IMG/VR virus record: IMGVR_UViG_3300029543_000174
Span: 50,821-114,820 of that record
DNA from: a virus
Lineage: Duplodnaviria; Heunggongvirae; Uroviricota; Caudoviricetes
Strand: one strand, 5' to 3'
DNA length: 64,000 nucleotides
Positions 666 through 64,000 of this stretch are shown here, in pieces. Each line of letters starts with the position of its first letter. Within the stretch, counting starts at the first letter, position 1. The position numbers were made by a program, and so were the translations under genes. The notes under the pieces were generated by a model that did no database searches, was not told where the DNA came from, and was given only the letters and a program-made list of their open reading frames with translations.

Positions 666-2210
666 ATGACATTACTTGAAAGTAAAATTAGAGCTTTTCT
701 CAAAGATTATGAGGATGTTGTAATTAGAGAAGAAGACGGCAAGTATTATTATGACTTGTATTGTGATATTGATGATGAATTGAGTAACGACCAGATTAAT
801 GAAATTTTAATTTCTGATAATCCGATTGAAACTCTTTACCGTAAAATCAGAGAAGCGTATTATCAAAGTCTTTATGAGGTTGAATTAAATTTAGCTGCTG
901 ATTTTAGAAAAAGCAAATATGGCTATACTGAAAAGATTGATGATGCTTTCGATTGGTTTTACAATAATATAATTCTCGATTATCCGAAATTAGCAGAGCA
1001 TTTTCTCAAACAAAAAGTTTGCACCAATATCTTTCTTGATACCGGTGATAAAGCAAATGGATATGAGGATAATGATATTTATCCATCCGGCTATGGCAGA
1101 TATGATGAATTGTATGACATTTCCGACAAATCATCTGTTCTTTGGCTTGCTAATCAGCAAGGATACAGTAAGGATGACTTTCTTGATGTATTTGAAAGTG
1201 AATGCAGAAATACCAAGTCAGGACTTTTGTACGACCTTTATCATGAATTACTTAATTCTTATAACGGTGGTTGTATTGCTGTATTAACTGAAATGACATT
1301 ACAGCAGATGATTGATATTAATGATGCAAAAAATGATAACATTGCTGGCTTTGTTACTATTGAAAAGAATACATCTGTCGGTCTTTATGATTATGCAAAC
1401 GGCGGTGGAGGCCCTTTTGATATTGAATTGGAAAAAGACCTTGATATTCCGATTGCTTATATTGGTGAGTGTCTTGCTGATTCAACAGTAGGTAGTATTC
1501 AAAATTACACTCTTTCCAGTGTCTATGGTACTTGCGATTCTTTTTGGCAATACGGCAAAAAAGAACCACAAATATTTATCCCTGATATGGATAAACTTGC
1601 AAATCTTGATATTTTTTCTTGGCGTAGTACATCACCAAATAACCGTGTTTTGGAACATGTCTACTTTAACCCTGATGCAAATTCAGGTTTTCAGTTTGTA
1701 TATGACATTATACAAGATAAAGAGGTAGCAAAGGCAATTGAAGAGTCAAGCGACAGCAAAGAGTTCTTTGACATTATCAATAACTGTGAGAGAAAAACAG
1801 AACTTACAGATATTGATGAATTGTCTCTTTTTAAAGAAATATATTTTAAATATTGCTTTGAAAAGAATTCTTCTTGGTACTACGGTACTAACAAAGAAAC
1901 ATATCAGAAACTTTATAAGGTCTTTGTTAAATCACCTGAAGTGGTTATTGACAAATCAGTTCTTCAAACAGATGAAACATTCAGGTATATGCTCCTTGAT
2001 AGGATGAAAATTGATTGTAACTATTATTTAGGTAATGGTGACGGTCATAACAAATTTCTTTGGGGCGGTAATGTGGAAACTCAAATTGCTTATATGAGAG
2101 CACTTTACGATAGTTTCCCTAACGAAAAAAAGCCTGAATGGATTTCTATTGAAGATATTGACAATTACCAAAAAAAAATGATTGAAAAGGAGACAGTAAA
2201 GAATGCCTAA
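666..2210 (+). CDS. hypothetical protein (514 aa)
   Basis: Long ORF with a GGAGG RBS 7 nt upstream of the ATG. No domain recognised. Confidence 0.5.
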   Translation: MTLLESKIRAFLKDYEDVVIREEDGKYYYDLYCDIDDELSNDQINEILISDNPIETLYRKIREAYYQSLYEVELNLAADFRKSKYGYTEKIDDAFDWFYNNIILDYPKLAEHFLKQKVCTNIFLDTGDKANGYEDNDIYPSGYGRYDELYDISDKSSVLWLANQQGYSKDDFLDVFESECRNTKSGLLYDLYHELLNSYNGGCIAVLTEMTLQQMIDINDAKNDNIAGFVTIEKNTSVGLYDYANGGGGPFDIELEKDLDIPIAYIGECLADSTVGSIQNYTLSSVYGTCDSFWQYGKKEPQIFIPDMDKLANLDIFSWRSTSPNNRVLEHVYFNPDANSGFQFVYDIIQDKEVAKAIEESSDSKEFFDIINNCERKTELTDIDELSLFKEIYFKYCFEKNSSWYYGTNKETYQKLYKVFVKSPEVVIDKSVLQTDETFRYMLLDRMKIDCNYYLGNGDGHNKFLWGGNVETQIAYMRALYDSFPNEKKPEWISIEDIDNYQKKMIEKETVKNA

Positions 2211-2847
2211 TTGGTGTGTAACGGATATTGAGGTATCCGGCAAGAAAGACGAATTGTCAAAATTATATGATTTAATTAACACTTGGGGTCAAAAATCATT
2301 AGATGGGGATTCAAATGGAGATTATTTCTTTTTTAGATTTAAAGATGTAGTTGAACTTACAGATATTGTTAAGTATGCAGAAATCTTTACTGAAGATAAA
2401 CTAAATAGTTTATCAATAAGAGGCAATCTTGAAGATATGCAAATTCAAAATGATGGTAGTTTGCTTATTCGTGTTACAACCCCTTGGAATCCAATGTTAT
2501 TAATGTGGGTTAGAATTTTTGATAAATATTTAACCGATTATACGATGTATTATATGTCGGAAGAATCAGGAGAAGGTATTTATATTACAAATAACCCTAA
2601 GTATATTGGTACATATAATTTTGATGTTAAAGATCATGATAGTTTGGAAGAAAAACTTGGCAAAGGCAATGTGCCTGAAACCGAAAGTTATGTTTCCGAA
2701 AAACGAATCATTGAAATTTTGCAGAATCTTCTCAAATCAGAGTTAAATGATATTGATGAGTTAATTACTAAATTTAATTCGTCATATTTTATTGATGATA
2801 TTTCAATAAATAAATTTAATTTTGTTCCAATTGAAGATGTTTTGTAA
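2203..2847 (+). CDS. hypothetical protein (214 aa)
   Basis: ORF with an AAGGAG RBS. Its start overlaps the upstream gene. Confidence 0.45.
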   Translation: MPNWCVTDIEVSGKKDELSKLYDLINTWGQKSLDGDSNGDYFFFRFKDVVELTDIVKYAEIFTEDKLNSLSIRGNLEDMQIQNDGSLLIRVTTPWNPMLLMWVRIFDKYLTDYTMYYMSEESGEGIYITNNPKYIGTYNFDVKDHDSLEEKLGKGNVPETESYVSEKRIIEILQNLLKSELNDIDELITKFNSSYFIDDISINKFNFVPIEDVL

Positions 2848-2899
2848 AAAAGAAATTATTAAGCAGTAGGAACAATCCTGCTGCAAACGGAGGTTTACT

Positions 2900-3964
2900 A
2901 TGAAACTTATAACTAAAGAAATAATCAAATTGTTTGAGAAGTATCCGATTGGAAGTCAAGACGGAAAGGGAGGAGATGCAACAGTAATTGTTAAATTCTT
3001 CTATCCTGCCGGTGCGGCTACATGGTTAATTACCGAAGGCAATTTGATTAAGGATGAAAACGGAAATGTTTCAGATATTGAAATGTTCGGTTTCTGTTGC
3101 CCTATGGGCGTTGAATACGGTGAGTTAGGTTATGTTATGTTATCAAACCTTGAATCAGTTGAAGTAATACCGGGATTAAAAGTTGAAAGAGATTTATATT
3201 TTCCTAATGGAAAAATTAATCTCCGTAATGCTTGTATGAAATGTTTCATGACCATTCCTGAATTGTTTGACTATCCTTTGTATTACTCAATTTATCAACT
3301 TAAAGAAAATGATGATAACCGTCATCTTCGATTTGCAAAATTTAATGAACTTGAAAATGGTTTGGCAGATATTAAAGCTGAAAACTATTATCAAGTTTAT
3401 CGTGACAAATATGAAGATAATATTGATATGACAAAATCATCTGAACAACTTTCCTTGTGCAATTCTTTATATAGCTTGCTTAATAGTGATATGCCTATGC
3501 CACTTGGTTGGTACGGTCACTCTTTATCAGTAAGTGACATCATTACTCTTGAAAAAGGTAATATAAAATCTGCATATTATGTTGATGCTATCGGTTTTAA
3601 ACAGTTACCTGATTCACTTGTTGATGAACTTAAAACTGAGCAAAATAATTATCTTCCAATTCAACTCGTTGCGTTTATAAAGAATATGGACTTTTATGAA
3701 TTTAACGACAATCTTGAAATCGGACAAACAGATGAAGATGCCATTGAAGAGGTGCAAAAACAGCTCAATGATAAAAAAGCCCGTGAGGGTATTTTAAAAA
3801 CATTGAGAGAGTATTTGGAAAATTCGGAGACTATTATTTCAAATACAACCATTAAAAAGCTTAGTCTGATTGAGCTTAGTCTGATTGCTGACAGTTTAAT
3901 AATGGAATATCTTATAAGAATGGTATCTCAATATCAAGAAGAAACGGAGGATAACAATGGCTAA
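2900..3964 (+). CDS. DUF2958-domain protein (family often linked to ArdC on conjugative elements)
   Basis: N-terminus VIVKFFYPAGAATWLITEG...FGFCCPMGVEYGELGYVMLSNLESV...VERDLYFP matches the DUF2958 signature recalled from memory. RBS ACGGAGG. Confidence 0.55.
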   Translation: MKLITKEIIKLFEKYPIGSQDGKGGDATVIVKFFYPAGAATWLITEGNLIKDENGNVSDIEMFGFCCPMGVEYGELGYVMLSNLESVEVIPGLKVERDLYFPNGKINLRNACMKCFMTIPELFDYPLYYSIYQLKENDDNRHLRFAKFNELENGLADIKAENYYQVYRDKYEDNIDMTKSSEQLSLCNSLYSLLNSDMPMPLGWYGHSLSVSDIITLEKGNIKSAYYVDAIGFKQLPDSLVDELKTEQNNYLPIQLVAFIKNMDFYEFNDNLEIGQTDEDAIEEVQKQLNDKKAREGILKTLREYLENSETIISNTTIKKLSLIELSLIADSLIMEYLIRMVSQYQEETEDNNG

Positions 3965-12787: not shown

Positions 12788-12817
12788 CTTTAATATTATG
12801 TATGTGTGAGGAAAATT

Positions 12818-13279
12818 ATGATAGATATGTTATTTAAAGGAAAGACAACTGATACAAAAAGATGGATATATGGTTCTCTTGTTGTAGCAATCGTACATCA
12901 ATGTAAACATTATTATATTACTTCCGGCAGAACCAATATTAATGACGGTAATATTGATTTTGAAAAATTTGAGGTTATTCCTGAAACTGTAAGTCAGTTT
13001 ACCGGTAAATATATTAATAACACTCGAATCTTTGATGGAGACATTTTAGAGTGGTGTGATGATAGTTGGGGAATCACAAATACTGCTGTAACAAGGACTG
13101 TTGTATCTTGGGATGAAAATGACTGTTGTTGGGTTTTAAAACATGACGGTAAGGACGAATGCATTTGCACATTCACTGAATATGATAAATCTGAGTGGGA
13201 AAATATGAATTTAATCGGAAATATTTATGATAACCCGGAATTGTTATTGGATTATAACAAACAGGTTACTACCGTTTAA
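12818..13279 (+). CDS. YopX-family protein
   Basis: C-terminal IGNIYDNPELL hallmark and an internal IPETV...TGKYI...IFDGDIL motif. Paralog of 13507..14010. Confidence 0.65.
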   Translation: MIDMLFKGKTTDTKRWIYGSLVVAIVHQCKHYYITSGRTNINDGNIDFEKFEVIPETVSQFTGKYINNTRIFDGDILEWCDDSWGITNTAVTRTVVSWDENDCCWVLKHDGKDECICTFTEYDKSEWENMNLIGNIYDNPELLLDYNKQVTTV

Positions 13280-42907: not shown

Positions 42908-42957
42908 CCAGTTCGTCCTCCGGATTGCTTCGGCACCGGGGGCTTTTTATTAACATT

Positions 42958-43015
42958 TTGCGAATTTTGGCAAAAACAGCAAATTTTTTTGAAATATTCG
43001 CGATTAATAATATAG
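42958..43015 (+). promoter_or_regulatory. copy of recurrent promoter-like motif
   Basis: TTGCGA-N17-AAATTTTTTTGAAATATTCGCGATTAATAATATAG. Confidence 0.5.
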
Positions 43016-43060
43016 AACGACTGAAAAAAGTCTGATTTTTAATATGAAGGGTGGAATTAA

Positions 43061-46293: not shown

Positions 46294-46479
46294 ATGGGAT
46301 CAAGCTTTAATAAGTTCAAAATTGTTGATAAAGAAACAACAATAGTTTACACACAAGATGTAAATGGAAACATCAATGGTAAATTCTATATTGATACTGA
46401 AGATTTGTCAAAAGTCCTTATGGGGTTATTGCCAAGGTTGTGCTCCTCCAAACTGCCTGAAATTGTTAATGTTTTGTAA
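46294..46479 (+). CDS. small hypothetical protein
   Basis: AAGGAGAAAAAA RBS. Confidence 0.35.
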   Translation: MGSSFNKFKIVDKETTIVYTQDVNGNINGKFYIDTEDLSKVLMGLLPRLCSSKLPEIVNVL

Positions 46480-46530
46480 ACACTGAGAAAAATCACAAAT
46501 TTTTTTGAAATATTCGCGATTTATATAATG
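46474..46530 (+). promoter_or_regulatory. copy of recurrent promoter-like motif (upstream of TnpB-like gene)
   Basis: TTGTAA-N17-AAATTTTTTTGAAATATTCGCGATTTATATAATG. Confidence 0.5.
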
Positions 46531-46556
46531 TAAGGCGGTAAAAAGGAGGAATTACT

Positions 46557-48353
46557 GTGCCGGAAAAAGAAAAAAAGAATCAATATATTTTATCAATGGG
46601 CTTAGAAATTAATGCTGATGATAAAATTTATCTTGATAAGTATTTTGAATTTGTAAGAAAAATGCAAAATTATTTTATTTCTTATCAGCTAAAAAAATAT
46701 AACAAAATGGTAAGAGAAACAAATTATCAAGAATTAAAAATTCAAATTGATAATATTGATAAAGCTATTTCTAATTTCAACAGACAAATTATAAACCGTC
46801 AAAAAGTTATTGATGAAGGTGAAATATCTAAATGTGAAATCACTTCATACAAGAATGAAATTGCAGAATTGAAAAAAGATATTTCTTCTTTGAAAAAAGA
46901 AAAATCAAAATATCAAAAGCAAATTTATGAACTTTTGAAAGAATACAGGTTTAGTGATTTAAGTTTTAAATCCGATGTAGCTATATTTGACAAAATTGAT
47001 TATTTCACAAAACCTTGTTACAAAACAAAGAATGGTAAGCTTGCAAGAGATAAAAATGGTAACAAAATTCCTATTCTCGATGAAAACGGAAATGTAAAAA
47101 GAAAATGTTTTGTCTCTTCATTAGTGAGAAAATATTCTATTGCTGCACCGATTTGGTCAGCATTTGATAAAAAGTTCAAGGAAAACGGTGCAGTCCATTT
47201 TAAAAGCTTTTTAAATAAAAAATCAGTCAGCTCTATTGCATTCCCAGTTGGTAATTCTTTCAAAGGTAACAATGCTTTTGTTATTCCTTCTGTAGGCAAA
47301 ATAATTAAATATAAAATACCAAGAACCCAATACGAAAAGGAAGTATTTAACAAAGAAAATGTTAATGTTATCCGAATTAAAAGGATTTGGAAGAATACAA
47401 AATACAGCTATTCGGTTCAGTTTACTATAACAGGTGAACCTGTGTTAAGGAAAGACAAAGATAATTGTGTCAAACATCCACTTGGCACTGGTGTAGCAGG
47501 TGTAGGTATAAGTTTAAATGAATGTTGGATTTGCACTGAGAACACATTAAAAAGAGTTTCTTTAGTTCCACCTGATGCTTATGAGTTTGATAATGAAATA
47601 AAACAAATTGAAAGAGCAATGGATAGAAGTAAGCGTGCTACTAATCCAAATAATTTTGATGAAAAGGGTAGGGCAAAGAGCTTTTACGAAACGCCTGACC
47701 CTGATAACCCAGACAAAATCATCAAGTCAAAGCTCCGTTGGAGATTTTCAAAGCATTACAGAAAACTAAGTCAAAGAAAAGCTTATTTGGAAGGTATTAA
47801 TGCCAGAAAGCGTAAGCTTTATGACGAAAACCTTGTGAATGAATTATTGCTGTATTTCAATGAAATCAATATTCAAAAGAATGATTTCAAGAGAACTCAA
47901 ATGAGTAAACAAAAAGTCGGTGACAGCGCCGATGAAAAGAAAAAGGCTGGTTTACATATTAAAGAAGCATCACCTTCACAGTTCGTTGAAATTCTTAAAA
48001 GAAAAGTCATCAGCCACGGTGGTAAAGTAAATATCATTACTAAAAAGGAATGTCAAGCAACAGAATTCAATCATATAGACGGTAAGTTCTATGATATGCC
48101 TGTTTCTAACAGGTGGTTTGGTATGAGTGATGGTAATGTTCTTCAAAGAGATGCTCATACGGCTTTTAATCTATTGACACTTAATGATATAGAAAAAAGC
48201 AACAAACTTTATGATGACTTTTTAAAACAACATTCTGCCGAACTTGAAAAGTTTAATGTTGTTGCACCTGAACAGGTAAATATGGTTACTTGCAGTCAGG
48301 CAAAAGAAAAAAGAAAGTCAGCAAGAAAAACAAAAAAGAAAAATATTGCATGA
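46557..48353 (+). CDS. TnpB/Cas12-like RuvC-fold protein (598 aa), RuvC-I Asp apparently replaced by Ser
   Basis: GTG start with an AAGGAGG RBS. Region GTGVAGVGISLNE aligns with the TnpB RuvC-I block (ref. vGIDLG) with S in the D position. KLRWRFSKHYRKLSQRKAYL...LLLYFNEINIQKNDF aligns with the RuvC-II block (ref. vvvEdLnvkgm). SQFVEILKRKVISHGGKVNIITKKECQATEF aligns with the TnpB block FxxLxYKAxxxGxxVxxV with a degenerate zinc finger. QRDAHTAFNLL aligns with RuvC-III (ref. DRDxNAAxNIL). Confidence 0.55.
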   Translation: MPEKEKKNQYILSMGLEINADDKIYLDKYFEFVRKMQNYFISYQLKKYNKMVRETNYQELKIQIDNIDKAISNFNRQIINRQKVIDEGEISKCEITSYKNEIAELKKDISSLKKEKSKYQKQIYELLKEYRFSDLSFKSDVAIFDKIDYFTKPCYKTKNGKLARDKNGNKIPILDENGNVKRKCFVSSLVRKYSIAAPIWSAFDKKFKENGAVHFKSFLNKKSVSSIAFPVGNSFKGNNAFVIPSVGKIIKYKIPRTQYEKEVFNKENVNVIRIKRIWKNTKYSYSVQFTITGEPVLRKDKDNCVKHPLGTGVAGVGISLNECWICTENTLKRVSLVPPDAYEFDNEIKQIERAMDRSKRATNPNNFDEKGRAKSFYETPDPDNPDKIIKSKLRWRFSKHYRKLSQRKAYLEGINARKRKLYDENLVNELLLYFNEINIQKNDFKRTQMSKQKVGDSADEKKKAGLHIKEASPSQFVEILKRKVISHGGKVNIITKKECQATEFNHIDGKFYDMPVSNRWFGMSDGNVLQRDAHTAFNLLTLNDIEKSNKLYDDFLKQHSAELEKFNVVAPEQVNMVTCSQAKEKRKSARKTKKKNIA

Positions 48354-48365
48354 CAGCAATGTTGA

Positions 48366-48516
48366 TATAGGTAGACTTAGCTACCTAAAACTACCGGTAA
48401 ACGCATTTTTGTGTTTGGTAGTAATGAAATAATTAAGGTTAAGCAGTTAGTTGGTTTGCGTTTGTCAGAACTTAATAGAGCTGTTTGACAAGATTATACA
48501 GTGTAATTAATTTGAG
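48366..48516 (+). other. conserved array leader, copy 1 (about 150 bp; contains TTGACA-N17-TAATTT)
   Basis: About 90% identical to 49690..49825 and 50502..50652. Confidence 0.5.
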
Positions 48517-48618
48517 GTTTTGGTACTGTAGTAGATTACACTACTCTAAAAGAAATATATTGGGAGTGTCTGAAAAATCCATGTTTTGGTACTGTAGTAA
48601 ATTACACTACTCTAATTA
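48517..48618 (+). CRISPR. CRISPR-like mini-array 1 (2 repeats of 36 nt, 1 spacer of 30 nt)
   Basis: Repeat GTTTTGGTACTGTAGTA(A/G)ATTACACTACTCTAAAAG. Spacer AAATATATTGGGAGTGTCTGAAAAATCCAT. The second repeat has a degenerate 3' end. A terminator hairpin follows at 48618-48638. Confidence 0.5.
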
Positions 48619-48638
48619 CACCATTTGGTGTGTTTTAT
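48618..48638 (+). terminator. hairpin ACACCATTTGGTGTG followed by TTTTAT
   Basis: Inverted repeat with a T-run after array 1. Confidence 0.5.
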
Positions 48639-48668
48639 ATAAAAAATAATTTAGGAGGAAAAAATATA

Positions 48669-48769: not shown

Positions 48770-48824
48770 TTAAGTACAAATACAGCATCCCCGGATACGC
48801 TGATTAAACATTATCCGGGAATGT

Positions 48825-48911
48825 GACAATGTAGTTTAACGGTAAAACACAAAAGTTGTTTTTTTGATCCTCCTTCGACTTTTGGATGTAAGTTCAAATC
48901 TTACCATTGCC
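48825..48911 (+). tRNA. atypical tRNA-like gene (possible anticodon UGU; 21-nt variable arm; one acceptor-stem mismatch)
   Basis: Canonical T arm (GTAAG-TTCAAAT-CTTAC) and D arm (GTTT-AACGGTA-AAAC) by eye. The anticodon loop is ambiguous because of a T7 run. Confidence 0.3.
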
Positions 48912-48921
48912 AATAAGATAT

Positions 48922-49355: not shown

Positions 49356-49430
49356 GCAGATATGATGTAATCGGTAGCATACAACTCTTCCACAGTTGGT
49401 GTGCGAGTTCAAACCTCGTTATCTGCTCCA
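49356..49430 (+). tRNA. tRNA-Gly (UCC), CCA encoded
   Basis: Acceptor GCAGATA/TATCTGC. Anticodon stem CAACT/AGTTG with loop CTTCCAC. T arm GCGAG-TTCAAAC-CTCGT. Confidence 0.75.
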
Positions 49431-49436
49431 AAATAT

Positions 49437-49512
49437 TCTCCATTAGTTCAGAAGGTAGAACGGTAGACTGTTAATCTATATGTCATTGGTTCAAATCCAA
49501 TATGGAGAGCCA
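49437..49512 (+). tRNA. tRNA-Asn (GUU), CCA encoded
   Basis: Acceptor TCTCCAT/ATGGAGA. D arm GTTC-AGAAGGTA-GAAC. Anticodon loop CTGTTAA. T arm ATTGG-TTCAAAT-CCAAT. Confidence 0.8.
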
Positions 49513-49515
49513 AAC

Positions 49516-49591
49516 GGACCGTTAGCTTAGTAGGTAAAGCAACCGGCTCATAACCGGTAAACCATGGGTTCAAATCCTATACGGTCCACCA
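49516..49591 (+). tRNA. tRNA-Met (CAU) (elongator-type; Ile2/lysidine alternative not excluded)
   Basis: Acceptor GGACCGT/ACGGTCC with 1-72 paired. D arm GCTT-AGTAGGTA-AAGC. Anticodon stem ACCGG/CCGGT with loop CTCATAA. Confidence 0.8.
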
Positions 49592-49594
49592 TAT

Positions 49595-49670
49595 GTGTCA
49601 TTAGCTCAGTAGGTAGAGCAACAGACTTTTAATTTGCAGGTCAAGGGTTCAATTCCCTTATGACACACCA
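49595..49670 (+). tRNA. tRNA-Lys (UUU), CCA encoded
   Basis: Acceptor GTGTCAT/ATGACAC. D arm GCTC-AGTAGGTA-GAGC. Anticodon loop CTTTTAA, with one A-C mismatch in the anticodon stem. T arm AAGGG-TTCAATT-CCCTT. Confidence 0.7.
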
Positions 49671-49689
49671 CTTAATAGGGCTGAATTAG

Positions 49690-49825
49690 CAGCCTGATGC
49701 TACTGGTAAACACATTTTTGTGTTTGGTAGTAATGAAATAATCAAGGTTAAGCAGTTAGTTGGTTTGCATTTGTCAGAACTCAATAGAGCTGCTTAACAA
49801 GATTATATAGTGTAATTAATTTGAG
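49690..49825 (+). other. conserved array leader, copy 2
   Basis: About 90% identical to leader copies 1 and 3. Confidence 0.5.
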
Positions 49826-49993
49826 GTTTTTGTACTGTAGTAAATTACACTACTCTAAAAGCGCCGCAGAATTGCTTCCACGGTGGTCTTTGTTTTGGTA
49901 CTGTAGTAAATTACACTACTCTAAAAGGACAGCTACAGTTTTAGGCACGGTTTTCTTGTTTTTGTACTGTAGTAAATTACACTACTCTTAACG
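49826..49993 (+). CRISPR. CRISPR-like mini-array 2 (3 repeats of 36 nt, 2 spacers of 30 nt)
   Basis: Repeats GTTTTTGTACTGTAGTAAATTACACTACTCTAAAAG, then the GTTTTGG variant, then a degenerate terminal repeat ending CTTAACG. Spacers CGCCGCAGAATTGCTTCCACGGTGGTCTTT and GACAGCTACAGTTTTAGGCACGGTTTTCTT. Confidence 0.55.
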
Positions 49994-50056: not shown

Positions 50057-50497
50057 ATGCATTTAGATACAGCAGTAATATTTTTTATTGGTGTTCCTGT
50101 ATATTTGCTAATGGCATTATTATCAAGAAAATTTGCGTATGTTGAAGCATCAATTGGATTGCTAATATGTTCAATTGTTAGCCTATTTACAGAAAACACA
50201 GGAATAATTTGTTTGGTGATATATTTTGGACCATTCATTGTTTCAGCTATTATGAAACCAATAGAAAATAGGATAAATAAAAAGAAACAAGAAAAAGAAT
50301 TGCATAAATTTGCGGATATGCAAAAAGGAAAGGTGGGTGTTATCCATGAATTAGAAGATGGCAACTTATATTTATTCCTCTCAGGTAGATATTGGCAAAT
50401 ATCCGAACAGTCGAGAATTAAATATAATTGTGAGGAACAAGATGCCGTTAAGGTATTAGATATTAATACAGATAGACTTATCGTTAAGCCTATTTAG
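50057..50497 (+). CDS. NfeD-like membrane protein (short form)
   Basis: N-terminal TM segments. The C-terminus GKVGVIHELEDGNLYLFLSGRYWQISEQ...AVKVLDINTDRLIVKP fits the NfeD OB-fold pattern (ref. G.G.v..G..W.A.s...i..G..V.V....L.V.P). Confidence 0.5.
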   Translation: MHLDTAVIFFIGVPVYLLMALLSRKFAYVEASIGLLICSIVSLFTENTGIICLVIYFGPFIVSAIMKPIENRINKKKQEKELHKFADMQKGKVGVIHELEDGNLYLFLSGRYWQISEQSRIKYNCEEQDAVKVLDINTDRLIVKPI

Positions 50498-50501
50498 TAT
50501 A

Positions 50502-50652
50502 TATGGGTAGACTTAGCTACCTGAAACTACCGGTAAACGCATTTTTGCGCTTGGTAGTAATGAAATAATCGAGATTAAGCAGTTAGTTGGTTTGCATTCG
50601 TCAGAACTTAATAGAGCTGTTTGATAAGATTATGTAGTCGTAATAATTTGAG
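50502..50652 (+). other. conserved array leader, copy 3
   Basis: About 90% identical to leader copies 1 and 2. Confidence 0.5.
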
Positions 50653-50818
50653 GTTTTAGAACCATATATAACTACACTACTCTAAAAGTACCGAAGAAGA
50701 ACGAAGCGGTGCATAAAAGTTTTAGAACCATATATAACTACACTACTCTAAAAGGTCTGAGATAGTTGCAACAATAAAAAACTTTGGAACTGTATTATAT
50801 TACACTATTTTTTAAAAA
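50653..50818 (+). CRISPR. CRISPR-like mini-array 3 (2 clean repeats plus 1 degenerate; spacers of about 30 nt)
   Basis: Repeat variant GTTTTAGAACCATATATAACTACACTACTCTAAAAG appears twice. Spacer TACCGAAGAAGAACGAAGCGGTGCATAAAA. The third unit is degenerate (TGGAACTGTATTATATTACACTATTTTTT). Confidence 0.5.
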
Positions 50819-50833
50819 AAGGAGATAAAAATT

Positions 50834-51240: not shown

Positions 51241-52191
51241 ATGAGTTTAGCTAAGAAAGTATTATCGGTTGGTATTGCTTCTATTATGGCAATGTCAGCT
51301 ATTGGAGTTGGCACTACTGCACTTGCCGAACCAATTAATTCTGTTCAGTCGGCTACTTCAATTTCACTAAATGAGAGTAAAACTGTAACCTTGAAATATG
51401 GTGATATTGGTAATTATGATGACATCTCGGAAGATACTGTTTACTATAAGTTTACTGCTCCGACCACTAATTATTATGAATTTACCTTAACAGGTTACAA
51501 GACAAGAATTGATAATAATGACCCAAGTGCTTATATTGATATAACAGATGAATATGGCGTCAATGCATCGTCAAGTGGGGGCTTATTTAATCCGTATTTT
51601 AATGATGTAAAATCAATTGCCTATTTGGAACAAGGAAAGTCATATATAATCAATGTCTTTTACTCACCAATTGGTACTCAAGAGTACAATTCAAAGGACT
51701 ATGCCGAAACAGCAATTACACTAACTGTTTCTCCACATACACATGACATTACAAGTGTCGTTAATGACGGATATACAGACTACACCTGCAAGCGTTGCAA
51801 TTATTCATATACCGAATTTAAACCGTTACCGACATCTCCTTCACAGCCTACACAGGCTCCTACAAGCACTGTTACTCCAATAACAGCAAGTAAGGTATCA
51901 AAGCCAAAAAAGACTAAAATTAAAAAGGTAAAGGCTGCTAAGAAGGCATTGGCAGTTACTTGGAATAAAGTATCCGGCGTAAAAGGTTATCAAGTACAGG
52001 CTGCAACAGACAAAAAGTTCAAAAAGAACAAGAAAACTGTTACAATCAAGAAGCAAAAAACTACTAAGACAACCGTAAAGAAACTTAAAGCTAAGAAAAA
52101 GTATTACGTAAGAGTAAGAACTTACAAGACCATAAATGGAAAAAAGGTTTACTCGGCTTGGTCAAGTGTAAAAAATGTAAAAACTAAATAG
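51241..52191 (+). CDS. secreted protein with shared Lys-rich Fn3-like C-terminal module
   Basis: Signal peptide. The C-terminal ~100 aa are nearly identical to the C-terminus of the 60296 protein. Confidence 0.5.
   Translation: MSLAKKVLSVGIASIMAMSAIGVGTTALAEPINSVQSATSISLNESKTVTLKYGDIGNYDDISEDTVYYKFTAPTTNYYEFTLTGYKTRIDNNDPSAYIDITDEYGVNASSSGGLFNPYFNDVKSIAYLEQGKSYIINVFYSPIGTQEYNSKDYAETAITLTVSPHTHDITSVVNDGYTDYTCKRCNYSYTEFKPLPTSPSQPTQAPTSTVTPITASKVSKPKKTKIKKVKAAKKALAVTWNKVSGVKGYQVQAATDKKFKKNKKTVTIKKQKTTKTTVKKLKAKKKYYVRVRTYKTINGKKVYSAWSSVKNVKTK
51848..52140 (+). repeat. about 290 bp nearly identical to 63724..64000 (shared C-terminal module of two surface-protein genes)
   Basis: Direct comparison of the nucleotide strings gives about 93% identity. 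Confidence 0.7.
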
Positions 52192-52269
52192 ACTTTTTTG
52201 TAAATCTAAAAAGCACCATAGAATTTTGATTTTCTATGGTGCTTTTTTATTTTTCTAAAAATAAAAAAC

Positions 52270-52288
52270 TTGCGCGATATATATATTG
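52270..52288 (+). promoter_or_regulatory. short-form promoter-like core TTGCGCGATATATATATTG
   Basis: First of four tandem copies in 52.2-52.7 kb. Followed by a strong RBS and a 34-aa peptide gene. Confidence 0.5.
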
Positions 52289-52311
52289 AACGAAGCAGTT
52301 AGGAGGAATGT

Positions 52312-52416
52312 TATGACACTTACAGGAAACATAATTTTGCTGATTGTATGTTCAATTACATTTATTGCAAGTTTGACGGCTCTCATTTTGAGAAGTGTCA
52401 AAAAACACAAAAAATG
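52312..52416 (+). CDS. small hydrophobic peptide (34 aa)
   Basis: TTAGGAGGAATG RBS. Sequence MTLTGNIILLIVCSITFIASLTALILRSVKKHKK. Confidence 0.3.
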
Positions 52417-52446
52417 AAAAAATTTAATATTCAAAAATTTTAAAAA

Positions 52447-52465
52447 GTTGCGCGATATATAAAGT
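52447..52465 (+). promoter_or_regulatory. short-form promoter-like core TTGCGCGATATATAAAGTG
   Basis: Tandem copy 2. Confidence 0.45.
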
Positions 52466-52536
52466 GAAAGGTGAATAACACTCATTTGATATTAGAAATT
52501 TGGAGCTTGATTATAACCTTTCTGAAAATAAAAAAA

Positions 52537-52555
52537 TTGCGCGATATAGAAAATG
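52537..52555 (+). promoter_or_regulatory. short-form promoter-like core TTGCGCGATATAGAAAATG
   Basis: Tandem copy 3. Confidence 0.45.
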
Positions 52556-52673
52556 GTGAGGTTAAACCGCACTGGCGTAAATATCGTATTGAAAATTATA
52601 AAAAATCAAATAGAACCTGCTTTGAGTGTATATTTTGAGGATTTGTATTTGATTTTATGAAAAAAAATTTTCT

Positions 52674-52692
52674 TGCGCGATATCTTAAGTGA
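52674..52692 (+). promoter_or_regulatory. short-form promoter-like core TTGCGCGATATCTTAAGTG
   Basis: Tandem copy 4. Confidence 0.45.
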
Positions 52693-52932
52693 CAGCACTA
52701 ATAATCGAGCTGTTCAAAAGGCTGGATAAGCCGTTATTATGATTGTTTTAGTCTGAATATTACATAAAAATACTTGAATTAAAGGGTTTATACAAACATT
52801 GTTATTTACTCTTCGGGCAAAAATAATTCACTTTTTTGATGATATCAGGCTTGAACATATATCTATTCAATGCATCTAAACAAAATACTACTTTCCGCAT
52901 TGGAAATCTAATGAAAGGAGAACATATAGTAC

Positions 52933-63200: not shown

Positions 63201-64000
63201 CAGTTCCTGCTACTTGTACTACTGATGGATACACTGCCGGTACCCATTGTTCGGTATGTAATAAAGTTATTTCTGCTCAAAAGGTTATTAAGGCTACAGG
63301 ACATAAGCCTACCAAAATTGCTGCTGTACCTGCTACTTGTTCTTCTACCGGACTAACGGAGGGTTCAGTATGCTCTGTATGTAAAACAGTATTGGTAGAA
63401 CAAAAGGTTGTTCCTGCACTTGACCATAAATGGGATAACGGTACTGTTACCGTTGAACCGACTTGTACAAAGGAAGGTAAAAAGGTTTATCATTGTGTTA
63501 ATTGCAATGAAACTATGATTGAATCAATCGGTAAAACAAATCATTCGTTTGGTAATAATCTTCCTAATTGTTCAGTATGTGGCGCTGCTAATCCAAATTA
63601 TGTAGCGCCAACAAAGCCAACTGAACATACTACAAAGCCTGCTGCTCCTTCACAGCCGCCACAGGCACCGATTCAGCCGAGTGTAATACCAAATGCTCCT
63701 GCTACAACAACACCTGTTCCTGTGCCTACACAGGCTCCTACAAGAGCTGTAGTAAAGGTATCAAAGCCTAAAAAGACTAAAATCAAAAAGGTAAAGGCTG
63801 CTAAGAAAGCATTAGCAGTTACTTGGAACAAAGTATCCGGCGTAAAAGGTTATCAAGTACAGGTTGCAACGGATAAAAAGTTCAAAAAGAACAAGAAAAC
63901 TGTTACAATCAAGAAACAGAAAACAACTAAGACAACCGTAAAGAAGCTTAAAGCTAAGAAAAAGTATTACGTAAGAGTAAGAACTTACAAAACTGTAAAG
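60296..64000 (+). CDS. giant secreted protein: transglutaminase-like cysteine-protease core, at least 8 Cys-rich ~32-aa repeats (ATC..GYTGDTVC.VC.K), Pro-rich linker, shared Fn3-like tail; 3' end beyond window
   Basis: Frame 2 is open from 60296 to the window end; I translated it and found no stop. Signal peptide MKKTLSFLLAFALIFSTVIVPVSAFA. GICSGFS...HSWNV...TDCS forms a Cys/His/Asp triad. Confidence 0.6.
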   Translation, partial: MKKTLSFLLAFALIFSTVIVPVSAFADTDFSNYSKYVYDSNSDPIDYNKVAVFKDYDELEKYIQSLNLKLENKPELIDGLVCYITSGYGGYGSDQDYDKPLVISLGYGPTNTFDDGIYDQALAGPYSVKLYPIKSNYMSDCLFQVRVDNGIYTTEQINEYYKTIKRAFDEMDLYDKSDYAKATSIVSWIGNNISYNDDNYQNVATAMLINKDGICSGFSSLVNYFCNIVGIESYEMGSIAHSWNVLKINGKYYFTDCSNIITARLMSAKDFGRVDEKTWVGGQSNDYYIEMINTAPYVKLHIVDEETWNDPGWKSLKQFVLDFMDNLTLVGIDTIGLVGDTRYHTHSSPYTISKTKIKKSNSSSNNLISDDNCNLKYENIDEKFTQTSKCSVNGYMTGYFTDRTAYYTDNDVITENARPIKDCILNGNTGDKAVKLTTKETQVDQFDNPTDKTVNFTENRVIETGKVIKNNKTSHNYYKRTIKNYTCDKDTVIEFVCKDCGERFCLVKYCDNHQFKTYVDVTPNTCTSDGKINIYDGNATDYDFKSKSFKGVSLNKLNHNIKTEVVDNGTLERTYCDNTSNEITLTTDDIKNNLMNCLYSSDYDGVDDLKWNKTQDRRFWEFNCDNQNGQTPTITMKLLAKGISDGVSNYGTSLYFTIKDDKTNEVKTYNFCYNDKTKVATLTNVNDKTDVLPAEAKIDGVTITLSVKANSVYKRYGYSYSYLNGRFYEIRTNGAFSDMFGTNCYIKFTYDNCNYETTKELDHFYQESNRTPASCTKEGTVEYTCKHCGAKKYDTLPLAEHTAIIQNKKDSTCAEEGYTGDTVCSVCGKTLKKGTAVPKKDHTYKITTVSANCTSQGYDEYTCIYCGYSYKTNYVEPNGKHVPKYGVNKKEATCTEKGYTGDTVCTVCNKVIEKGSETNPKNHSYVLTTVSATCVSEGYDLYTCSNCGDSYKTNIVAPNNKHTVVVDKAVPATCTTDGYTAGTHCSVCNKVISAQKVIKATGHKPTKIAAVPATCSSTGLTEGSVCSVCKTVLVEQKVVPALDHKWDNGTVTVEPTCTKEGKKVYHCVNCNETMIESIGKTNHSFGNNLPNCSVCGAANPNYVAPTKPTEHTTKPAAPSQPPQAPIQPSVIPNAPATTTPVPVPTQAPTRAVVKVSKPKKTKIKKVKAAKKALAVTWNKVSGVKGYQVQVATDKKFKKNKKTVTIKKQKTTKTTVKKLKAKKKYYVRVRTYKTVK

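Follow-up and report, generated by a model that had tools for sequence, protein, structure and literature searches.

What could a phage do with a TnpB-like protein whose nuclease site appears to have decayed, and why does its gene stand directly upstream of short CRISPR-like arrays? The question was raised by a 64,000-nucleotide stretch of Caudoviricetes DNA (IMG/VR record IMGVR_UViG_3300029543_000174, positions 50,821 to 114,820), which we analyzed as a whole and call the window. The gene is an open reading frame (ORF) at 46557-48353 on the + strand, with a GTG start, a ribosome-binding site (AAAGGAGG) 7 nucleotides (nt) 5′ of the start and a product of 598 amino acids (aa). Downstream lie three mini-arrays, each with a conserved leader of ~150 nt, and the three leader copies are mutually 88% identical. 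The window is part of a phage of ~169-198 kb, and contigs from IMG/VR, ENA and JGI are 97-99.5% identical at the locus. Seven phage genomes carry the locus in synteny and in one copy each, and no Y1 TnpA, the mark of an IS200/IS605 insertion sequence (IS), lies nearby.

After weighing the evidence given below, we think it fairly probable that this phage carries a nuclease-inactivated, zinc-finger-less protein of an IS200/IS605 TnpB subfamily, which would serve, together with triplicated omegaRNA-derived scaffolds fused to mini-arrays, as a reprogrammable RNA-guided binder. Three other explanations were considered, and each of them is less well supported.

Family and predicted fold of the protein

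The 598-aa query alone gave no direct match in Pfam, NCBIfam, PHROGs or a phmmer search of the PDB, where only coiled-coil noise was returned, and its homology surfaced solely via metagenomic intermediate proteins. The phmmer search of metagenomic proteins returned three tiers: close homologues with 55-97% identity; a graded series between E 1e-32 and 1e-17 that led to proteins annotated 'RNA-guided endonuclease TnpB family protein', the annotated ones lying at E 1e-24 to 1e-17; and IS200/IS605 OrfB genes of Clostridium and Geobacillus phages. NCBIfam guided_TnpB was matched by 13 of 19 aligned relatives (best E 2e-26), V_cas_c2c8 by five and PF01385 by six, and the family profile reached PDB entry 9j09 ('Transposase') and LaTranC. 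An exhaustive phmmer search yielded 677 relatives at E<1e-3, from which the query's own clade gained only one other 50%-identity cluster.

The AlphaFold model of the protein had a predicted local distance difference test score (pLDDT) of 82.6 and a predicted template-modelling score (pTM) of 0.69. Its best Foldseek match in the PDB was ISDra2 TnpB (8h1j, E 1.2e-11), followed by CnCas12f1, Cas12m2, ISFba1 TnpB, Cas12p, AsCas12f, LaTranC and Fanzor2. The top 24 matches were TnpB, Cas12f, Cas12m, Cas12p, TranC, Fanzor or CasPhi only (E 1e-11 to 8e-5), and no unrelated fold appeared below E 1e-2. Judged from the chain of homologues and the predicted structure, the protein is a member of the superfamily with the TnpB/Cas12 fold (WED, REC and split RuvC). 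Two insertions are specific to its clade, a coiled coil at ~aa 55-129 and a segment at ~aa 148-185.

Among its relatives, an IS-borne group (group W) and an array-bearing group (group C) were distinguished. Against their hidden Markov models (HMMs) the query scored 198 bits for group W and 190 bits for group C, and these equal scores indicate that it is not a member of either clade. By this measure, it is a long-branch relative of both.

Loss of catalytic residues under purifying selection

Alignment with active relatives places Gly317 at the position of the RuvC-I Asp (AGVGISL vs VGLDIGT) and Gln440 at that of the RuvC-II Glu (INIQKND vs IRVETMR; also NIQKN vs VETMN), whereas the RuvC-III residue Asp532 is retained (QRDAHTAF vs QRDLYSAF). 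This G/Q/D triad is kept in homologues with 55-99% identity to the query; all 83 relatives recovered from GTDB genomes have D/E/D. The loss of two catalytic residues predicts that the protein does not cleave DNA. A CxxC zinc finger is absent across the whole subfamily, and the sequence at that site reads KASQFNH. The absence says nothing about inactivation, since active members lack the CxxC as well.

An earlier annotation made from the letters of the DNA (the sequence-only reading) had recognized the order of the TnpB/Cas12 blocks and had proposed comparison with profile HMMs and a predicted structure. The block order was borne out by phmmer, by the guided_TnpB matches of the relatives and by Foldseek; the query itself matched no profile, its relatives matched guided_TnpB, V_cas_c2c8 and PF01385, and the structural matches below E 1e-2 fell within the TnpB/Cas12 RuvC fold and none in an unrelated family. 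The same annotation was right that RuvC-I has lost its catalytic Asp, but placed a Ser at the catalytic position; Ser319 occupies the conserved-Gly position of the block, two residues away from Gly317. It also overlooked the change from Glu to Gln at RuvC-II. Its reduced zinc finger holds insofar as no CxxC is present, although this feature is not special to the 598-aa protein.

The inactivated protein is maintained by purifying selection, as the ratio of nonsynonymous to synonymous substitution rates (dN/dS) was 0.10-0.25 for pairs ranging from 97% down to 55% identity, and no frameshifts were found at 55-99% identity.

Might the protein still be a nuclease, that is, a phage TranC-type effector with a rearranged active site that uses substitute acidic residues to cut array-targeted DNA? 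The retained Asp532 would allow it, as would E322 and D443, which lie 5 residues past the lost Asp and 3 past the lost Glu. An active TranC9 has been reported from a Caudoviricetes genome, and rearranged RuvC sites are known in TnpB and Cas12 (PMC10691335). However, the two candidate substitutes are not conserved within the clade: the homologue P0006 has D321/C322 and an Asn at the D443 position, and P0007 has neither. The residues conserved at 55-99% identity are instead the Gly and Gln at the canonical sites, and the canonical triad is present in every one of the active relatives. We consider continued cleavage decidedly unlikely and return to a binder that would not cut as our preferred reading.

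The leader as a guide-RNA scaffold

The relatives provide the key to the leaders. Two of them, P0010 and P0020, adjoin Y1 TnpA and so represent true IS200/IS605 elements. Each of the group W loci (40 of 83) has a conserved RNA of ~165-260 nt immediately 3′ of its stop codon, with …AGAACC-hairpin-GAGTTTCAG at the end of the RNA. Where one genome holds several copies of an IS, these diverge precisely past GAGTTTCAG, which marks the scaffold/guide boundary of an omegaRNA. Some 30 further loci from Oscillospiraceae, Ruminococcaceae and other Clostridia form group C, which also has the D/E/D triad and a homologous scaffold of 190-240 nt right 3′ of the gene. There, the scaffold ends in a ~33-nt segment (…GAGGCAAAG) that recurs every 65-69 nt, with 2-15 repeats and 34-35-nt spacers, which constitutes a CRISPR array. 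The anti-repeats in group C scaffolds are split, and scaffold and first repeat run into each other without a gap. From these features, group C is probably a TranC/type V-U clade. The phage locus and group C share the order gene, scaffold, array; in the phage, array 1 begins 163 nt past the stop codon.

A covariance model, R1, was built from 20 group W omegaRNAs only. Over 114 kb, R1 found group C scaffolds at their true positions with E-values from 7.5e-6 to 1.7e-3. On both strands of the window, its top three matches were the three leaders (Table 1), and the next match stood at E 0.11. The R1 alignment equates leader hairpin 1 with omegaRNA hairpin 1 and ACUACCGGUAA…UUGGUAGUAA with the consensus aCUAcCgUUAAU…UuGgUAGugAAAG; a phage variant with 88% identity (L009) reads CUACCGUUAA, as does the consensus, and its inner-stem changes are compensated. 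The reciprocal model R2, built from the leaders and searched against 350 kb of relatives, matched one relative (L109) at the omegaRNA position (E 3e-3) and three others (L099, L092 and L038) at theirs, more weakly.

The structure is conserved together with the sequence. Across 13 distinct leader copies, helices 1-5 were 96-100% paired, compared with 28-45% in slid controls. Double compensatory changes were found in three pairs (GGUAG/CUACC vs GGCUG/CAGCC; G-C vs A-U at columns 74 and 125), along with a dozen further one-sided, G·U-compatible changes. Its numerous G·U pairs assign the RNA to the + strand, the only one on which they are valid. For scaffold 1, the z-score of the fold was -2.6. 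Taken together, the model matches and covariation identify the leader as a structured homologue of the RNA that serves the TnpB subfamily as omegaRNA/tracr scaffold. A proposed helix 6 would pair the leader segments AGTGTAATT and TAGAG with AATTACACT and CTCTA of the repeat 3′ half; the complementarity holds in modules 1 and 2 but not cleanly in module 3.

Rfam returned nothing but tRNAs in and around the arrays, both at gathering thresholds and at E<=10. A sigma-70 promoter candidate in the leader 3′ end (TTGACA-17-TAATTT) was rejected: its -35 element lies inside a conserved helix and varies in other copies (TTAACA, TTGATA), and the candidate was unlisted by the consensus scan.

Repeats, spacers and their turnover

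All three arrays have 36-nt repeats and 30-nt spacers, and repeat halves occur 5-6 times compared with 0.02-0.07 expected. Repeat types A and B share an invariant last 16 nt and differ at 9 of the first 20 nt. Type V CRISPR RNA (crRNA) retains the 3′ part of the repeat beside the spacer, whereas type II crRNA retains the 5′ part; the invariant 3′ half would therefore fit use by the TnpB-like protein as a type V handle rather than a type II one. Each leader ends in AATTTGAG|GTTTT, with the junction ATTTGAG|GTTTT. In type II-A loci of Group 1 (87 of 167 loci), this junction anchors the leader, and it is essential for adaptation at CRISPR1 of S. thermophilus (PMC5382924). The 36/30-nt geometry likewise matches type II-A arrays. 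Both features bear out the sequence-only reading, which had described type II-A-like repeats next to the gene. Its placement of the gene just upstream of a leader and array also stands; leader 1 starts at ~48365, 11 nt past the stop codon. It further noted one of the element's own promoter motifs 5′ of the gene; this 82-nt motif, a putative promoter, does recur at 42947-43028.

The spacers turn over. In the seven near-identical phage genomes, leaders, repeats and flanks are common, and the spacers differ at all three arrays. At array 1, which has one or two spacers, L005, L013 and L016 deviate from the window; array 2 likewise holds one or two, and the related phages with one have a spacer different from the window's. 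The array 3 spacer differs in all six other genomes, including that of L004, whose protein is 99.5% identical. The array 3 spacers of L005 (10067-10096) and L013 (7100-7129) overlap by 11 nt on opposite strands (…ACTCTTGGTGT / ACACCAAGAGT…), which indicates a shared target locus that was repeatedly sampled. Terminal repeats are degenerate at the 3′ end of the + strand, consistent with leader-proximal insertion. Among the Pfam matches listed for the window there were no adaptation genes (cas1, cas2, csn2) and no cas9, nor does the window have a Cas9-sized ORF, the longest product being a 932-aa leucine-rich repeat protein. Together with the type II-A junction and the 36/30 geometry, this suggests that spacers may be acquired in trans by a type II-A module of the host.

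Could the arrays then simply be orphan type II-A mini-arrays that serve a host Cas9 and its trans-activating crRNA (tracrRNA), for instance against rival phages, with the TnpB-like gene an unrelated, decaying transposon remnant upstream? The junction marks type II-A Group 1 loci, the geometry is of the type II-A kind, and the spacers turn over as in active arrays. Moreover, one homologue stands without an array and two gene variants are damaged, as set out below. However, the leader is homologous to the TnpB-family scaffold and starts at the same point as in the relatives, and the layout recurs in the array-bearing relatives and in a second inactivated clade. Conservation of the repeat lies in the 3′ half, whereas types A and B diverge within the 5′ stretch where a type II tracrRNA would pair. 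No type II tracrRNA anti-repeat was found in the window; the best candidate of the whole-window anti-repeat scan (13041-13085) lies inside a YopX-like ORF (12806-13279) and was dismissed as chance. A search for host arrays with the pattern TACACTACTCTAAAAG-N28-32-GTTTT found none in GTDB genomes and, in JGI metagenomes, only three more phage contigs and chance single matches. The purifying selection on a gene free of frameshifts at 55-99% identity also speaks against a decaying remnant. We regard arrays for a host Cas9 as unlikely, if the most credible of the three alternatives.

The variable spacers also bear on a third explanation, in which the protein is a transcription factor of the TldR type with an invariant guide, such as GTCTGAGATAGTTGCAACAA at 50755 past the terminal repeat, that represses a host or phage promoter, and the spacers are incidental. 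TldRs, which include phage-borne examples, are dead TnpBs whose fixed guide is encoded beside the gene, and the seven phage genomes do not differ in the sequences past the terminal repeats. Nevertheless, neither the window nor related loci contained a site complementary to these fixed sequences over >=15 nt, and in arrays 1 and 2 the terminal repeat is degenerate at its guide-proximal end. The scaffold-proximal slot, which is the guide position in TnpB and TldR, is held by the variable spacers. A fixed guide appears very unlikely to us, and a binder programmed by its spacers remains our preferred reading.

Several observations nonetheless weigh against that reading. The E-values of the covariance models are modest (~1e-3) and roughly calibrated, and the three leader matches are paralogues rather than independent; despite this, the position, strand, start 11 nt past the stop codon and reciprocal matches make chance unlikely. 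In module 3, the proposed leader:repeat helix 6 is only 78.6% paired and thus broken, and no clean anti-repeat was seen. A 55%-identical homologue on the 4.7-kb contig L003 has neither an array nor a scaffold detectable by R1 or R2, and the same search found no scaffold on L010, another contig with a homologue at this level of identity. The gene may be dispensable, since in the otherwise syntenic phage contig L001 it carries an in-frame deletion of aa 182-366 (L001 10001-11218), and the L010 homologue P0008 (56% identity) is cut at aa 443 by an IS200/IS605 insert (L010 194-3371). The retained RuvC-III Asp and the acidic residues close to the lost positions make a rearranged active site conceivable. 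Finally, 16 spacers compared with INPHARED phages, PLSDB plasmids, the window and all fetched loci gave no protospacer match, and six spacer cores searched in IMG/VR matched only the arrays themselves.

Three details of these variant loci may be added. The L001 deletion falls between two similar DE(N/K)G(N/R)VK motifs and removes the WED/RuvC-I region; it is either a real variant or an assembly artefact. The L010 insert lies on the opposite strand and carries Y1 TnpA and a canonical 443-aa TnpB. On L003, positions 2477-2620 hold a strong TTGACA-17-TATAAT promoter, then a ~70-nt two-hairpin RNA with a terminator, then a 49-aa ORF.

Proposed mechanism

Overall, we propose a putative mechanism for the phage locus. 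The gene, scaffold 1 and array 1 would form one transcript that runs from the upstream phage promoter to the terminator-like hairpin at 48617-48642; no terminator was found in the interval between gene and scaffold 1. Scaffolds 2 and 3 would be transcribed by read-through from the tRNA cluster and from ORF 50057-50497, just 3′ of which scaffold 3 starts, and processing of tRNA-Lys, 3 nt away, could free the 5′ end of scaffold 2. The protein would bind the scaffold-repeat-spacer RNA as a natural single guide, like the reRNA of TnpB, with the invariant repeat 3′ half as the guide-proximal handle, and further spacers would be served by the scaffold in trans. The resulting ribonucleoprotein may then pair with DNA complementary to the spacer and, with two of the three RuvC carboxylates gone, would bind without cutting. 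The bound complex might block transcription or replication of its target, either a rival mobile element or a host gene. Guides would be reprogrammed by spacer acquisition, probably in trans by the Cas1-Cas2-Csn2-Cas9 module of a type II-A host.

Parallel inactivated lineages on mobile elements

The phage protein is not the only inactivated member of its subfamily. In a second clade (P0012, P0016 and P0018), the RuvC-I Asp is replaced by Tyr and the RuvC-II Glu by Asn, and the proteins are truncated before RuvC-III. A scaffold of ~105 nt follows past the stop codon, with a weak R1 match (E 0.019); it ends …GTACAGGATTTGAC| and is followed by 36-nt repeats (GTTTTGGATCAG…) with a period of 66. Scaffolds of this clade end in ATTTGAC or ATTTGGG, and the repeats are of the GTTTTGG or GTTTCAG type. 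One member adjoins a TraG/VirD4 coupling protein of a type IV secretion system, which marks a conjugative element.

Additionally, 116 Enterococcus plasmids (e.g. L112, NC_007594.1, E. faecium pHT-beta, 1643-3540) encode a 390-aa protein, annotated 'hypothetical protein', 7 nt 5′ of two leader and mini-array modules. This protein is a truncated Cas12f/TnpB-like protein without the RuvC-I Asp (CnCas12f1 E 6.7e-20; guided_TnpB E 1e-12), and BLASTP showed it to be similar neither to the query nor to P0012. Its modules consist of 36-nt repeats and 30-nt spacers with a TTGAG|GTTTT junction, and 24 of 36 repeat positions are as in phage repeat B. By appearance, the plasmid locus is a dead type V system of independent origin whose mini-arrays reside on conjugative plasmids. 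From these comparisons, there are three dead effector lineages on Firmicute mobile elements with 36/30 arrays of the GTTTT(G/A)G type, and the active array-bearing relatives have different repeats.

We speculate that Firmicutes mobile elements, namely the present phage, the conjugative elements of P0012/P0016 and the Enterococcus plasmids of the pHT-beta type, carry dead type V effectors derived from TnpB, TranC or Cas12f with II-A-compatible, scaffold-fused mini-arrays, and parasitise the II-A adaptation of their hosts for cleavage-free silencing of rivals or host genes. This would be a counterpart of type IV-A3 that has arisen at least three times, and the three omegaRNA-plus-array modules of the phage would capture omegaRNA in the course of its division into tracrRNA and crRNA; we put it forward tentatively, as a generalization that is possible but doubtful.

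Comparison with known systems

TranC/type V-U systems have their array 3′ of the gene at the omegaRNA position, no cas1/cas2, and 3-20 repeats of 32-38 nt, and one clade occurs in a Caudoviricetes genome. The phage locus resembles them in its TnpB-sized or slightly larger effector, in an array directly 3′ of the gene whose first repeat is continuous with an omegaRNA-derived scaffold between the two, in the lack of nearby cas1/cas2, in repeat length, in short arrays and, for some of them, in residence in phages. In contrast, the characterised TranC members are active D/E/D nucleases. Unlike TranC, the phage carries its scaffold-array module three times, with arrays of only 1-2 spacers that differ between near-identical genomes, and its II-A-type junction and 36/30 geometry set it apart from the repeats and longer spacers of group C.

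Nuclease-dead TnpB/Cas12 regulators have also been described, including TldR, Cas12m, Cas12c, Cas12k and dCas12f-sigmaE. TldR clades arose repeatedly. Like the phage protein, TldRs are derived from TnpB, have a degraded RuvC triad, lie outside a transposon and stand beside a putative guide RNA, and some are phage-encoded. Each of them has one fixed guide that is directed at a conserved promoter, in association with fliC, oppF or csrA, whereas the phage locus has CRISPR spacers that turn over, and neither a target promoter nor a target-adjacent motif (TAM) was found for its spacers or fixed flanks. The remaining four are guide-associated RuvC-fold proteins that bind DNA without cutting, as proposed here. 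Cas12m, which silences plasmids, has lost its catalytic residues gradually; Cas12m2 is among the best Foldseek matches to the phage model. At the level of sequence, none of the four is related to the phage protein beyond the superfamily. All four are bacterial, plasmid- or transposon-borne and have repeat types of their own, and none has been reported with triplicated scaffold-array modules or a II-A junction.

Type IV-A3 systems on conjugative plasmids reportedly have no nuclease component or adaptation module, acquire spacers in trans and take part in inter-plasmid conflicts (bioRxiv 10.1101/2023.06.23.546257). They serve as a working analogy, as the effector is unrelated (a multisubunit type IV complex with DinG) and acquisition in trans is demonstrated there but would be only presumed for the phage. 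Type II-A Group 1 arrays have the ATTTGAG|GTTT junction, 36-nt repeats that start with GTTTT and 30-nt spacers in common with the phage, whose window showed no cas9, csn2, cas1, cas2 or tracrRNA, whose leader is otherwise a TnpB-type scaffold and whose repeats are conserved in the 3′ half. Virus-borne mini-CRISPR arrays are known from archaeal viruses and huge phages; they have 1-2 spacers and conserved leaders, and are presumed to depend wholly on host effectors with matching repeats. The present phage, by contrast, supplies its own dead effector and scaffold.

The sequence-only reading had suggested an RNA-guided binder or repressor programmed by the mini-arrays, and every part of this idea that could be checked by computation was supported, with binding and repression themselves still putative. 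It had also called the arrangement undescribed. That was too strong, given that CRISPR-associated TnpB derivatives and dead regulators are known, but the combination seen at the phage locus does appear undescribed in the literature searched. If our interpretation is true, it would add a phage-encoded, naturally dead, spacer-reprogrammable effector of ~600 aa to the TnpB-Cas12 continuum. With a recognisable omegaRNA scaffold fused to a CRISPR array, the locus would document how the RNA was split, a step that has been proposed in the emergence of type V systems, in a lineage that later lost cleavage. The II-A-type junction leads to the testable idea that the effector of one CRISPR type exploits the adaptation machinery of another across the phage-host boundary. 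Moreover, the comparable loci found on Enterococcus plasmids and conjugative elements suggest that a broader class of mobile-element silencing systems has been overlooked, and compact natural dCas12-like binders with short guides would be of practical interest for CRISPR interference (CRISPRi) and as platforms for editing fusions.

Features of the locus and its surroundings

The coordinates of the modules and related loci are collected in Table 1.

Table 1. Positions of the gene, scaffolds, arrays and related features (window coordinates unless a contig is named).
Feature	Position	Strand	Remarks
Promoter-like phage motif (…AAATTTTTTTGAAATATTCGCGATTTATATAAT…)	46463-46544	+	direct-repeat family D5, 82 nt, 72% identity; putative promoter
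TnpB/TranC-family protein, RuvC degraded	46557-48353	+	G317, Q440, D532; zinc-finger-less; two clade-specific insertions
Scaffold 1 ('leader')	48365-48516	+	structured RNA, 11 nt past stop codon, ends ATTTGAG
R1 match, scaffold 1	48358-48468	+	25.2 bits, E 1.1e-3
Mini-array 1	48517-48618	+	repeat 48517-48552, spacer 48553-48582, terminal repeat 48583-48618 (3′ end degenerate)
Terminator-like hairpin and T-run	48617-48642	+	immediately 3′ of array 1
tRNA cluster Gly, Asn, Met, Lys	49356-49670	+	tRNA-Lys ends 3 nt 5′ of scaffold 2
Scaffold 2, paralogue of scaffold 1	49674-49825	+	helix 1 GGCTG/CAGCC in place of GGTAG/CTACC
R1 match, scaffold 2	49667-49777	+	23.6 bits, E 2.5e-3
Mini-array 2	49826-49993	+	repeats at 49826, 49892, 49958; two spacers; terminal repeat degenerate
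Scaffold 3, paralogue 5′ of type-B repeats	50501-50652	+	best R1 match of window
R1 match, scaffold 3	50494-50652	+	26.4 bits, E 6e-4
Mini-array 3	50653-50754	+	two type-B repeats (GTTTTAGAACCATATATAACTACACTACTCTAAAAG), one spacer
Second inactivated clade, loci	L115 85-1850; L113 4001-5536; L114 1788-3308		
Group C, examples among L032-L106	L033 2286-2700; L052 3701-4700		

Pfam domains in 65 window ORFs included a sliding clamp, thymidine kinase, RNase H, uracil-DNA glycosylase (UDG), helicases, methylases, YopX, polyvalent-protein domains and a T2SSE ATPase, a content that fits a large phage or phage-like element; no Cas families were among the matches listed. Six tRNA genes lie between the arrays. 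Among the tRNAs, tRNA-Thr(TGT) at 48824-48913 is 90 nt long, which is unusual for its class, and tRNA-Leu(TAA) is 86 nt long.

Just 5′ of the TnpB-like gene, related phages carry an HNH_3-type homing-endonuclease gene of ~201-206 aa (L001 9284-9904, L002 6195-6815 and L009 1559-2164), which has shrunk to a 61-aa remnant in the window (46294-46479). A 262-nt direct repeat with 91% identity occurs at 51875-52136, at the 3′ end of ORF 51241-52191, and 11.9 kb away at the window edge (63738-63999). Within a 450-bp intergenic stretch (52245-52693), a 46-nt AT-rich motif with TTGCGCGATATATA at its centre occurs four times. A related motif, TTCGCGATT-TATA, stands 5′ of the TnpB-like gene, and the four copies are probably phage-specific promoters.

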